Shown here: piece after piece, positions 300 through 4,206 of the stretch | Layout: each line of letters begins with the position of its first letter | How positions within the stretch are numbered: the stretch's first letter is position 1 | Virus record (IMG/VR): IMGVR_UViG_3300033153_008619 | Origin: a virus | Strand: one strand, 5' to 3' | DNA length: 18,151 bases | Program-made: the position numbers and the translations under genes | The notes under the pieces: generated by a model | What the model was told of the DNA's origin: nothing | The model's database searches: none | What the model saw: only the letters and a program-made list of their open reading frames with translations

Positions 300-376
300 T
301 CAGGCTGGGAGGATTCGAACCTCCGAAATCTCCACGTCCCAAACGTGGCGTGTTAGCCGGACTACACTACAGCCTG
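300..376 (-). tRNA. tRNA-Pro (anticodon TGG)
   Basis: Hand-folded cloverleaf on the minus strand. Acceptor CAGGCTG/CAGCCTG is perfect. D-arm GTGT..ACAC. Anticodon stem CCACG/CGTGG with loop TTTGGGA (U33, anticodon UGG, G37). T-arm GGAGG-TTCGAAT-CCTCC. The variable loop is an atypical 7 nt. Confidence 0.65.
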
Positions 377-381
377 TTTTT

Positions 382-690
382 TTATTCTATCATTTCACAA
401 ATACGATCTCTTACGAAATCTAATGTAGCCTTCCATTGAACAGCATTATTTAATGCTTCGTTAATCTGTCTTGAATGTCTTTCTCTTTCTTGATATGGAT
501 TAGTTCCAAAGCTACCAACTCCATTATCTAGATCTTTTTCATTCCAATACTTTTCCATAGCTTGCCTACCAACCTCTTCGGTTTGTCGTTTAGCATGTAT
601 ACTAACAGCTTCCGTATAACCTTTTTCAGCCCACTCAAGAACTGCTTTAGCAGAATCAGCATTTGTCCACCTATCCATTTCATCCTCCAT
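382..690 (-). CDS. hypothetical protein (102 aa)
   Basis: Intact ORF with TAA stop, wedged between tRNA genes. No recognisable motif. Confidence 0.45.
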   Translation of the reverse strand: MEDEMDRWTNADSAKAVLEWAEKGYTEAVSIHAKRQTEEVGRQAMEKYWNEKDLDNGVGSFGTNPYQERERHSRQINEALNNAVQWKATLDFVRDRICEMIE

Positions 691-691
691 T

Positions 692-767
692 TAGCGCGAC
701 TCGGATTCGAACCGAGAAAACCCCTGTGACCAAGACAGGTCAGCCAACCAATCGCTTTCCCCGCGCT
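692..767 (-). tRNA. tRNA-like gene, atypical; anticodon loop CUUGGUC, formally UGG
   Basis: Canonical T-arm (CTCGG-TTCGAAT-CCGAG) and a 7-bp acceptor (AGCGCGG/TCGCGCT with G7-U66). Departures from a standard tRNA: G8G9 instead of U8A9, a 3-bp D-stem with displaced register, a 6-nt variable loop and U37. Possibly a degenerate Pro(UGG) paralog. Confidence 0.35.
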
Positions 768-774
768 ATGTTAG

Positions 775-849
775 GGTATTTGAAGGGACTCGAACCCTCT
801 CTGTAAGTACCACAAACTTACGTGCTAACCATTAAACACTACAAACACC
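775..849 (-). tRNA. tRNA-His (anticodon GTG) with encoded G-1
   Basis: Acceptor GTGTTTG/CAAATAC preceded by an encoded G-1 opposite C73. U8A9. D-arm GTGT-TTAATGGTTA-GCAC. Anticodon stem TAAGT/ACTTA with loop TTGTGGT (GUG). T-arm GAGGG-TTCGAGT-CCCTT. Confidence 0.6.
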
Positions 850-986
850 ATGAAAATAGTATGTGCGACTCGATATGGATTTCAGGCTCCCGGTCGTCAC
901 TCCTCAAGCCACTCTTGATGGACTATTATGTTTACGTGCTCCCTTTCGGGTGGACACACACATACTATATATTTTATTGTCCTAGG

Positions 987-1058
987 TGGGAATCGAACCC
1001 ACGACACAAAGATTTAGAGTCTTCTGTTCTACCGCTGAACTACCAGAACAGGTGCCTG
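987..1058 (-). tRNA. putative amber-suppressor tRNA (anticodon CTA)
   Basis: Acceptor GTTCTGG/CTAGGAC, A73, U8A9. D-arm GTTC-AGCGGTA-GAAC. Anticodon stem GAAGA/TCTTT with a 7-nt loop CTCTAAA (U33, anticodon CUA, A37). 5-nt variable loop. T-arm GTGGG-TTCGATT-CCCAC. A clean 72-nt cloverleaf whose anticodon reads UAG. Confidence 0.55.
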
Positions 1059-1138
1059 TCTTTCCAGGCTGTCAGTTCGTTCCTGGACATTTATGAGGAC
1101 CGTCTAAAACGAATCCGAAGGCATCCAGTCCCTCAATT

Positions 1139-1426
1139 TTAATTCATTTCGTATCTACCAAATACTTTATGATCTGAATGACAAGCAAATGCTGTCATTT
1201 GATTATCTACATCAGGTTCGTAAAAAGGAAATAAGTCGAAACCCATTTCTTTTAATATCTGATGATCGAAAAGAAGATCGTCTGACAAAAGATATATTAA
1301 AGTCTCATTTTGCCAAGGTTCTTTCTCTTCATTCTTCAATAGATATTCTGCTAACGCATGACCGGCTTGTACGGCTCTATAGCTTGCGTCATACTGCTTG
1401 CTGATTATTATATAAAGTTTCTTCAT
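1139..1426 (-). CDS. Pth2-like peptidyl-tRNA hydrolase candidate (95 aa)
   Basis: The N-terminal segment YRAVQAGHALAEY resembles the PTH2 catalytic motif (AAQCSHAA). The downstream ETLIYLL..LKEMGFDL parallels the PTH2 segment ETLIALL..LGL. SD-like GAAGGTG lies upstream of the ATG. The 3' end overlaps the next ORF by 38 nt. The homology call is from memory only. Confidence 0.4.
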   Translation of the reverse strand: MKKLYIIISKQYDASYRAVQAGHALAEYLLKNEEKEPWQNETLIYLLSDDLLFDHQILKEMGFDLFPFYEPDVDNQMTAFACHSDHKVFGRYEMN

Positions 1427-1721
1427 ATAACACCTTCAACTTCTCAATGATCTTTTGTGCCTCATTGAATGCAGTAATATAAGCAGGTCTACCAAAACCG
1501 TCGCCTTTGTTCTCGTTACAACGGCTCTCGATAAATCTTTTTCGTCCATCCTTCTCTAAGTAAATACAACGATCACCGAAGTGCATTGTATAGGAAGGTC
1601 TGTTAATCTGTGATCTACAGATTGTCTCTAATCTTCGTGGGTTAGTAATATACTTTTTAAAATAAGTTCCTTTACTATTGATCTCTTTTACTAACTCTTT
1701 CTTTAATTCTTTATTAGTCAT
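1389..1721 (-). CDS. hypothetical protein (110 aa)
   Basis: Intact ORF with a GAGG SD upstream of the ATG and a TGA stop. No recognised domain. Confidence 0.5.
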   Translation of the reverse strand: MTNKELKKELVKEINSKGTYFKKYITNPRRLETICRSQINRPSYTMHFGDRCIYLEKDGRKRFIESRCNENKGDGFGRPAYITAFNEAQKIIEKLKVLYEETLYNNQQAV

Positions 1722-4055: not shown

Positions 4056-4129
4056 AGCCCCCTATCCGATTCGAACGGATGACCCGCAGTTTACAGGACT
4101 GCTGCTCTGACCAACTGAGCTAAGGAGGC
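4056..4129 (-). tRNA. tRNA, anticodon loop CCTGTAA (reads UGU/Thr in canonical register, with atypical C33)
   Basis: Good cloverleaf. Acceptor GCCTCCT/AGGGGGC, U73, U8A9. D-arm GCTC-AGTTGGTCA-GAGC. Anticodon stem GCAGT/ACTGC. T-arm ATCCG-TTCGAAT-CGGAT. Identity is uncertain because position 33 is C. Confidence 0.5.
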
Positions 4130-4132
4130 ATA

Positions 4133-4206
4133 AGCCGTTAGAAGGACTTGAACCCTCTTCTCGGGAGTACAAAACCCGTGTTCTAGTCCGGTTGAACTAT
4201 AACGGC
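4133..4206 (-). tRNA. tRNA-Thr (anticodon TGT)
   Basis: Acceptor GCCGTTA/TAACGGC, U73, U8A9. D-arm GTTC-AACCGGACTA-GAAC. Anticodon loop TTTGTAC on a 4-bp stem with a U-U pair at 31-39. T-arm GAGGG-TTCAAGT-CCTTC. Confidence 0.55.

Follow-up and report, generated by a model that had tools for sequence, protein, structure and literature searches.

A CUA-anticodon tRNA beside a small PTH2-fold gene: a candidate portable two-gene cassette of large phages

Introduction

What does a tRNA that reads UAG do in a phage whose own genes regularly end in TAG? The question is raised by the IMG/VR virus record IMGVR_UViG_3300033153_008619, an entire JGI metagenome contig of 18,151 bp (G+C 35.6%; the window in what follows) from a large, AT-rich phage. 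Its genes all lie on the minus strand, and among them is a suppressor (Sup) tRNA with the anticodon CUA. Suppressor tRNAs of phages are usually taken as markers of recoding or as unexplained passengers of tRNA arrays, the latter in the case of phage XacN1, and they are already known from both recoded and non-recoded jumbo phages. For the tRNA studied here it seems probable, on balance, that it is a functional amber suppressor and the RNA half of a portable two-gene cassette, in which a gene of ~95 amino acids (aa) for a hydrolase with a peptidyl-tRNA hydrolase (PTH2) fold is followed on the same strand by the UAG-reading tRNA. The features on which the argument turns are as follows.

977-1050, minus strand: tRNA with anticodon CUA (amber-suppressor type), 74 nt by ARAGORN; class I, G1-C72, A73, CCA not encoded
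1015-1017, minus strand: anticodon CUA (the plus strand reads TAG), within the loop C32-U33-C-U-A-A37-A38
1051-1138, minus strand: spacer of ~88-89 nt between the hydrolase stop codon and the tRNA, with a weak terminator-like hairpin at 1136-1115
1139-1426, minus strand: 95-aa PTH2-fold (peptidyl-tRNA-hydrolase-like) gene, ending in TAA and without an in-frame TAG in this copy

Identity and conservation of the tRNA

A sequence-only reading of the window had described a CUA tRNA with U8 A9, its D-arm, the anticodon loop CUCUAAA and the T-loop UUCGAUU. All of these features are present, and the tRNA is borne out by ARAGORN and by an Rfam match to RF00005 at 978-1049 on the minus strand (66 bits against a gathering threshold of 29, E = 1.1e-12, model positions 1-71 of 71). 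That reading had placed it at 987-1058 with no strand stated; a tRNA does lie there, shifted by ~9 nt, at 977-1050 on the minus strand. The conserved hydrolase gene directly upstream had gone unmentioned. The cloverleaf is canonical, with a 7-bp acceptor stem (two G-U pairs), U8 A9, a D-arm GUUC/AGCGGUA/GAAC, G18G19 kept, a 5-bp anticodon stem, a 5-nt variable loop and the T-loop UUCGAUU, and CUA occupies positions 34-36 of a 7-nt anticodon loop with U33 and a purine at 37. The label that ARAGORN gives it, 'tRNA-Pyl', is printed for every tRNA with this anticodon. A tRNA-Pyl has a short D-loop without G18G19, a 6-bp anticodon stem, a 3-nt variable loop and no T-Psi-C sequence, and pylS and pylBCD are found in the genome. 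This identity was rejected for the window tRNA, whose D-loop has 7 nt and contains GG, whose anticodon stem has 5 bp and variable loop 5 nt, and whose T-loop is UUCGAUU; no Pyl genes were found among the annotated open reading frames (ORFs) of the window.

Regions of related phages were recovered with the 95-aa ORF upstream of the tRNA as an anchor. A CUA tRNA follows the homolog of this gene in each of L021/L022/L023 (a 258-kb phage lineage), L024 and L025, and in the more distant ~224-kb phage L026 it is found 1.3 kb from the homolog. The four distinct ortholog tRNAs diverge throughout their stems, and 98.8% of the stem cells are still paired. Compensatory changes on both sides occur in 10 of 21 pairs, compared with at most 4 in slid controls, and none of 500 shuffles reaches the observed value. 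The loop CUCUAAA and G1-C72 are invariant in the four orthologs, with a discriminator base of A in three lineages and G in one. Judged by these substitution patterns, the tRNA is under purifying selection for both its cloverleaf and its CUA anticodon.

Linkage of the tRNA to a small PTH2-like gene

For the survey of other phages, the cassette was defined as a ~95-aa PTH2-like gene with the motifs AVQ.GHA, W.N.T and F.EPD, together with a same-strand CUA or UUA tRNA within ~2 kb, usually less than 100 nt downstream. The window carries the motifs, and its tRNA lies ~89 nt downstream on the same strand. A tblastn search of 50,697 phage records with the 95-aa protein gave 18 matches, comprising 15 Lak megaphages, Xoo-sp13 and two related Stenotrophomonas phages, and a scan of IMG/VR with the family alignment gave 80 loci. 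ARAGORN detects a suppressor-type tRNA in 69 of these 80 (64 CUA and 7 UUA among 678 tRNAs). Four further CUA tRNAs that the program missed bring the number to at least 73, and four of the remaining seven loci end close to the gene. The missed tRNAs have a non-canonical T-loop, GGUUUGA, and are situated ~1.2-1.6 kb upstream (L070, L102, L105) or ~130 nt downstream (L096); since ARAGORN misses tRNAs of this type, suppressor counts in phage surveys may be underestimates.

The association is also close in position. Where a locus has a single tRNA, it is the suppressor in 23 of 24 cases. Of 52 loci with several, 41 have the suppressor as the tRNA closest to the gene, where 8.1 would be expected (p <= 1e-5). 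The 71 suppressor tRNAs share the strand of the gene without exception and lie at a median of 55 nt downstream, and the spacer in other phages is usually 7-60 nt. Among species-representative genomes the gene occurs on only 9 contigs of metagenome-assembled genomes, 7 of which have an adjacent CUA tRNA. As a control, 80 loci with a canonical phage PTH2 of 115-130 aa were analyzed. They contain 10 suppressors among 598 tRNAs, none of them within 1 kb, and a suppressor takes the place closest to the gene in 3 of 52 loci, as opposed to 64 of 76 for the small subfamily. Clustering in tRNA arrays thus does not account for the linkage, which is particular to the small subfamily. As far as can be read from these genomes, the pairing turns up in dozens of large phages unrelated to one another and is specific to the small PTH2-like subfamily. 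A full-text literature search, which covered few subscription journals, found no report tying a PTH2-like gene to suppressor tRNAs or describing an in-frame TAG in such a gene.

In the Lak megaphages Lak-A1 and Lak-B7, the 12 kb to either side of the gene contain no tRNA but one suppressor, which has the anticodon UUA and lies ~0.6-0.7 kb upstream. This ochre-type tRNA, which can read UAA as well as UAG, is at L030:11236-11308 in Lak-A1 and at L031:11341-11413 in Lak-B7; several kinds of suppressor tRNA have been described in Lak phages (Devoto et al.). A UUA tRNA is likewise found upstream of the hydrolase gene in L042-44, L055 and L062-64, and in all of these Lak loci, those of Lak-A1 and Lak-B7 included, the gene is free of in-frame TAG.

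Cultured jumbo phages with CUA tRNAs (XacN1, Xoo-sp13, GAP32, fHe-Yen9-03/04, CBB) share with the window the D-arm, G1-C72, mostly A73 and the loop CUCUAAA, as well as large tRNA arrays and no known read-through target, but they have no adjacent small hydrolase gene. The tblastn matches in this group (Xoo-sp13 and the related RAS14 and CM1) fall on the C-terminal domain of a longer protein (260-280 aa) that is encoded far from the tRNA. Xoo-sp13 and RAS14 were considered as cultured phages with the cassette and were rejected, because the domain is fused and has no adjacent tRNA. The fused genes are at L121:3461-4303 (Xoo-sp13) and L122:3515-4300 (RAS14), next to a 'glutamyl-tRNA amidotransferase' and an NAD+ synthetase gene in the former and a valyl-tRNA synthetase gene in the latter.

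Two further observations concern the tRNAs around the cassette. Transfer-messenger RNA (tmRNA) genes with plausible tags ending in ...AA lie within 10 kb of the cassette in ~8 distinct phages (L053, L065-69, L080, L088, L099, L100, L116, L120), and one is found ~1 kb from the two Sup tRNAs of XacN1 (L014). This nearness may fit a theme of ribosome rescue, and clustering in tRNA arrays may account for it as well. Three phages share conserved 70-nt tRNA-like genes to which ARAGORN gives a two-base 'anticodon' (ag; L084:4917-4986, L105:8670-8739, L106:8373-8442), and a tRNA-like gene at L105:5894-5967 has a four-base one (tttg); these are possibly unusual decoders or mis-folded predictions.

The 66 distinct cassette tRNAs have a nearly invariant anticodon loop (Y-U-CUA-A-A), while their stems and discriminator base vary freely. 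This bears on the proposal that the element does not decode at all, but processes or stabilizes the 3' end of the mRNA, acts as a decoy for anticodon nucleases, or is a decaying copy of a sense tRNA. Its position directly downstream of the gene on the same strand in nearly all loci speaks for such a role. So do the view that arrays of phage tRNAs work against defences that cleave tRNA, and the RNA-repair enzymes encoded in the window and its relatives. A non-decoding element is nevertheless highly improbable, because the CUA loop stays invariant across 66 sequences that otherwise vary, canonical G18G19 and T-loop are kept, no sense tRNA of the window or its relatives exceeds 65% identity to the Sup tRNA, and the in-frame TAGs described below, with selected codons downstream of them, need a decoder.

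The PTH2-fold protein

Homologs at 40-46% identity to the window protein carry PF01981 (PTH2), with 4 of 11 aligned homologs matching this family (best E = 2.7e-06), and the family profile finds peptidyl-tRNA hydrolase (Pth2) chains in the PDB at E = 0.005. An AlphaFold2 model based on 35 homologs has a predicted local distance difference test (pLDDT) score of 94.2. In the PDB, Foldseek matches it best to archaeal and human Pth2 (2zv3, 1q7s, 3erj, 1rlk, 1wn2), and the 13 best hits are all PTH2-family proteins except 2gax, a protein of unknown function; the template-modelling (TM) scores are mostly 0.66-0.78 (query-normalised), with probabilities of 0.99-1.00. According to the predicted structure, the 95-aa protein has the PTH2 alpha/beta fold. 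It also matches phrog_3668 'hydrolase' weakly. The subfamily comprises 794 representatives at 50% identity (E <= 1e-10), mostly of 95-100 aa. Its own invariant motifs (AVQ.GHA, W.N.T and F.EPD...TA.A) are all found in the window protein, and Q20, H23, D72 and T78 are invariant across the subfamily.

PTH2 proteins of jumbo phages are known, and were proposed to clear peptidyl-tRNA when ribosomes are rescued once tRNAs have been cleaved (Iyer et al., 2021; PMC7824862), in a paper with no mention of suppressors. The small proteins share the fold of these enzymes and differ from them in length (~95 aa against ~115-130 aa), in having invariant motifs of their own and in the suppressor as nearest tRNA.

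In-frame TAG codons in the hydrolase gene

In 21 loci, representing ~20 of 84 distinct hydrolase genes, tblastn homology passes through a single in-frame TAG. Direct translation confirms the TAG in L057 (IMGVR_UViG_3300031521_000124), L084 (3300031994_002305), L112 and L038, where the W.N.T and F.EPD...TA.A motifs lie beyond the stop. L109 (3300020048_000009) is a further locus whose hydrolase gene has a TAG. The TAGs are distributed over at least eight alignment columns, mostly in a variable loop ahead of the invariant Trp, and one position is common to six diverged members of one subfamily. Beyond the TAG, nonsynonymous divergence is lower than synonymous divergence (pN < pS) in 12 of 13 pairs, implying that the downstream codons are translated; a full-length hydrolase would then be made only if UAG is decoded. 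In an all-against-all test, these are the only in-frame TAGs outside Lak that are backed by homologs in many loci (68-77). Decoding of UAG by tRNAs of this kind is in this way indirectly supported by comparative data. An apparent excess of TAG as the stop codon of hydrolase genes (23/83) was rejected as a separate signal, since it is due to the in-frame TAGs; the true terminal codon is TAG in 4 of 58 genes and is not enriched.

Stop codons and the question of recoding

Of the 27 ORFs in the window, 8 end in TAG, 13 in TAA and 6 in TGA. The sequence-only reading was right that TAG is a regular stop here, but had counted 7 of about 27. TAG is not avoided as a stop codon in the window. Read-through would add 0, 2, 2, 4, 10, 12, 17 and 19 codons at the eight TAG stops, and these extensions are no shorter than those after TAA or TGA. 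No coding-strand ORF of the window is interrupted by TAG, and reading TAG as sense raises the long-ORF coverage by 0.066, compared with 0.092 for a TGA control. The earlier statement that the window is not recoded agrees with both results, and the window on its own does not have the properties of a stop-codon-recoded genome.

The tRNA could still be the code-switch device of a partly recoded genome, in which ~240 kb of unsampled sequence holds late genes with many in-frame TAGs, the structural and lysis genes being recoded as in Lak and crAss-like phages (code 15) and the window being a standard-code early region. Recoded phages do leave their early genes and suppressor tRNA in standard code, and a suppressor tRNA can be present before recoding sets in (Borges et al.). 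The window contains only early and auxiliary genes, the TAG-recoded Lak megaphages hold the same hydrolase-suppressor cassette, and TAG stops are scarce in two relatives (1 of 22 genes in L021 and 1 of 23 in L024), which matches the depletion stage proposed to come before recoding. A phage-encoded UAG-reading tRNA in a standard-code region, and in Lak a small PTH2-like homolog within ~0.7 kb of a suppressor tRNA, are indeed points of likeness between the window and TAG-recoded phages.

The signal of recoding itself, however, separates Lak from the rest. Counting TAG as sense adds 0.22-0.44 to the long-ORF coverage of each Lak-type locus, with a TGA control of at most 0.05, whereas the other cassette loci (~70 non-Lak loci, ~1.3 Mb) gain at most 0.17, like their own TGA controls. 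Single-stop splits relative to terminal use are similar for the three stop codons outside Lak (TAG 55/323, TAA 167/1286, TGA 46/461), as opposed to 26/91 for TAG and 4/98 for TAA in Lak. A recoding signal is therefore seen in every Lak locus and in none of the ~70 others. Late genes near the cassette are intact in the standard code in three lineages: the major head protein and prohead protease in L057, the large terminase in the L084 group and a 1,861-aa lysin-domain protein (virion lysin) in L099. The hydrolase genes of L057 and L084 are among those with an in-frame TAG. A probe with the tail sheath protein of L017 returned no homolog from the 258-kb contig, a result that is uninformative. 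The window further differs from TAG-recoded phages in having no in-frame TAG in 18 kb, TAG as a frequent stop (8 of 27 genes) and no local recoding signal, in a tRNA without tRNA-Gln identity features, and in the anticodon, which is UUA and not CUA in the Lak cassette. The cultured-phage CUA tRNAs most similar to that of the window come from jumbo phages annotated with the standard code, and the authors of XacN1 found no read-through targets for its two CUA tRNAs. With these observations set against it, a partly recoded genome is an unlikely explanation, if a more serious one than a non-decoding element.

Charging and the nearest tRNAs

Bacterial tRNA-Gln is identified by a weak U1-A72 pair, G2-C71, G3-C70, G73 and U38. 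The window tRNA has G1-C72, U2-A71, U3-G70, A73 and A38 at these positions, while the tRNA-Gln(UUG) of L024 has U1-A72, G2-C71, G3-C70 and G73, and shares only 55-56% identity with the Sup tRNA. The suggestion of the earlier reading that the tRNA is Gln-like, drawn from the D-loop, does not hold, since the acceptor end lacks the identity set and the D-loop sequence is variable among orthologs. Glutamine may yet be attached through recognition of the anticodon. As only the anticodon loop is constant across the 66 cassette tRNAs, recognition is probably via the anticodon, and CUA suppressors are often charged by the glutaminyl- or lysyl-tRNA synthetase. Attempts to name the inserted amino acid were dropped: tRNA similarity is low and unspecific, with a discriminator that is variable across the family, and the residues aligned with the in-frame TAGs are inconsistent (Tyr, Lys, Leu, Gly).

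The nearest tRNAs of cultured phages also have the anticodon CUA and belong to the jumbo phages Xoo-sp13 (76%), GAP32 (74%) and XacN1 (71%), which are closer than the sense tRNAs tested; the Xoo-sp13 tRNA as query in turn finds similar tRNAs in fHe-Yen9-03/04 and CBB. The best match overall is a bacterial-type tRNA-Asn (77%). The classical bacterial suppressors supE, supF and Su7 are single-base mutants of sense tRNAs that retain the body of the parent. Like them, the window tRNA has a CUA anticodon in an ordinary class-I cloverleaf, and cells with these suppressors tolerate read-through of natural TAG stops. Unlike them, it is near no sense tRNA of the same phages, and its CUA is conserved across diverged lineages.

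Gene neighborhood

The surroundings of the cassette in the window include the following features.

300-848, minus strand: downstream tRNA array, consisting of tRNA-His(GUG) at 774-848, tRNA-Pro(UGG) at 691-768, a 102-aa ORF at 382-690 and tRNA-Pro(UGG) at 300-376
849-976, minus strand: spacer of 128 nt between the Sup tRNA and tRNA-His, predicted to form a closed multi-hairpin fold (minimum free energy -35.9 kcal/mol, z = -3.3)
1389-1721, minus strand: 110-aa ORF, overlapping the hydrolase gene by 38 nt; a lineage-specific upstream neighbour
4455-7052, minus strand: 865-aa major-vault-protein-like gene
7497-8369, minus strand: Apyc1-like (anti-Pycsar) metallo-beta-lactamase gene
10080-11087, minus strand: T4 Rnl2-type RNA ligase gene

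The 110-aa ORF is conserved with the cassette only in a marine clade (58-64% identity) and in the ~224-kb phage L026 (36%), gave no match in Pfam and PHROG searches, and was rejected as a universal third component because it is lineage-specific. The order Sup-His-Pro-Pro is also found in L024, and Sup-His in L025. The two tRNAs Sup and His are only 7-10 nt apart in both, for which reason the 128-nt spacer of the window is regarded as an insertion; it matched no Rfam family, and a theta/HDV-like ribozyme or other Rfam family beside the tRNA was looked for and not found.

ARAGORN gives ten tRNA genes in the window, nine besides the CUA tRNA and all on the minus strand. The class-II tRNA-Tyr, with its long variable arm, and the C73 of tRNA-His point to a bacterial host. 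Three isoacceptors occur twice, namely Pro-UGG (300-376 and 691-768), His-GUG (774-848 and 2265-2339) and Thr-UGU (4056-4129 and 4133-4206), all on the minus strand; the copies are very divergent within each pair, suggesting separate origins or distinct roles.

A megablast of the window against the 50,697 phage records found nothing but a 48-nt stretch of tRNA-Tyr, and IMG/VR gave no matches when searched by the tRNA sequence and consensus patterns, or by the RNA ligase of the window. Two ORFs of the window looked up as exact protein sequences also had no match. A JGI contig of 258,599 bp (sample 3300072015) is closely syntenic with the window and adds a CCA-adding enzyme, RtcB, NADAR and a metallophosphoesterase, which marks the source as a jumbo phage with a tRNA-repair kit. 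Together with the Apyc1-like protein and Rnl2, these genes make up a neighborhood of counter-defence and tRNA repair. The window also encodes HD, NUDIX and radical-SAM proteins and a set for NAD salvage (NadR-like protein, PnuC, NAPRTase and a PncA-type isochorismatase), a complete cluster at 11909-15473 on the minus strand. The NAPRTase gene ends in a TGA that has the frame of pnuC, the next stop being 237 codons on; this is probably a coincidence between neighbouring genes with a common frame.

The 865-aa vault-like protein has the shoulder and repeat domains of the major vault protein and belongs to no PHROG family. Relatives at 55-65% identity are found on phage-like contigs, often with a tRNA array after the gene (L001, L003, L004, L008, L025), and bacterial homologs at ~50% identity are counted in thousands. 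By tblastn the gene is also found in LR756500, LR756501 and LR756503, 'huge phage' records of 462 kb and 735 kb. The phage-like contig L002 (JGI 3300082197, contig Ga0673036_0000002; 732,019 bp), which encodes a vault-like protein, IF3, TelA, an OmpA-domain protein and a PemK toxin, is near in size to the 735,411-bp records LR756501/LR756503, the largest phage genome of the collection. The vault-like homologs were rejected as anchors, since those in L002, L017, L019 and L020 are non-syntenic and without a Sup tRNA. An Rfam wcaG RNA motif (7304-7408, minus strand; 50.5 bits against a gathering threshold of 42 bits) is located upstream of the vault-like gene, in the interval that separates it from the Apyc1-like gene.

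Gene content of this kind brings up a further possibility, that the tRNA is aimed at the host or at competitors, where it would extend or destabilize TAG-ended host proteins, or disturb termination by release factor 1 or co-infecting elements. The counter-defence and takeover genes around it (the Apyc1-like hydrolase, the NAD-salvage cluster, Rnl2 and NUDIX) would be in keeping with such a takeover or counter-defence measure, the cassette occurs mostly in phages without a sign of recoding, and the window itself shows no phage target. But the TAG stops of this phage are as frequent as expected or more so, such that it would hit itself equally, and the recurrent TAG inside the cassette's own gene points to a target within the phage. 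An effect on the host is accordingly an improbable account, less credible than that of a partly recoded genome.

Proposed mechanism and points against it

In the two-gene cassette favored here, the tRNA would be co-transcribed with the hydrolase mRNA, and CCA would be added during tRNA maturation, as none is encoded. A host synthetase recognizing mainly the anticodon would then charge the tRNA, and the charged tRNA would cause partial read-through of UAG. Such read-through should be tolerable, because it adds only 0-19 residues to the TAG-terminated proteins of the window. In the least certain step, the substrate of the hydrolase would be the suppressor tRNA in its acylated or peptidyl form, or else peptidyl-tRNAs from ribosomes that have gone past a stop, and the suppressor would thereby be recycled or limited. 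Where the hydrolase gene has a UAG of its own, the amount of enzyme would track suppression, in a sensor loop analogous to the in-frame UGA of prfB. The prfB gene makes its product by +1 frameshifting at its own in-frame UGA, in competition with release factor 2 itself. In both cases a gene of the decoding machinery has an internal stop codon, and the yield of its product follows the way in which this stop is read; the cassette differs in using UAG and in that the sensed factor would be the neighbouring suppressor tRNA, and the putative loop is absent from the window copy.

A stronger form of this proposal is that hydrolase and tRNA make up a self-regulating, horizontally mobile read-through module, with an enzyme specific to the acylated or peptidyl suppressor tRNA and, in many phages, its own UAG as the readout of suppression. 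We regard this form as possible but tentative, and as clearly less secure than the cassette as such.

Several points weigh against the cassette as a working suppression system in this phage. That the window tRNA is expressed, charged and active is an expectation from its sequence, and the weak terminator-like hairpin between gene and tRNA makes co-transcription uncertain. The hydrolase copies of the window and its close relatives contain no TAG, so the self-referential loop is absent here. TAG makes up 30% of the stops in the window and is not depleted, which would be odd if suppression were efficient. On the side of the protein, hydrolase activity and substrate are suggested by the fold, while the window protein itself gives no Pfam hit at E <= 0.01 and falls below the PF01981 threshold. 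In addition, the Lys that we take to be catalytic in archaeal Pth2 aligns with Arg in the window protein and with Gly in Lak. Finally, the view is of ~18 kb of a genome of perhaps 250 kb, and the homology test for in-frame TAGs has power only for genes shared between loci, so that further TAG-containing genes may exist.

Implications

Suppressor tRNAs in recoded and non-recoded jumbo phages and the PTH2 of jumbo phages were known before, and the cassette and the self-referential TAG are new as far as the literature was checked. A large class of phage suppressor tRNAs is now seen as one member of a fixed pair with a small PTH2-fold hydrolase, and in many phages that give no further indication of recoding, this partner gene is the first UAG target that can be identified. 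Hydrolase genes that contain TAG will be cut short by gene callers set to the standard code, and the hydrolase/tRNA pairs are candidate parts for amber-suppression tools. The two-gene system bears on how suppression can be tolerable or switchable, on the onset of TAG recoding and on the role of PTH2-like proteins in jumbo phages. If the self-regulating module is real, the extent of UAG read-through in the course of an infection would be set or switched by it, its hydrolase would be the first protein partner dedicated to a natural suppressor tRNA, and the module would offer a stepping stone from standard-code phages to TAG-recoded ones such as Lak, which carry the same module.

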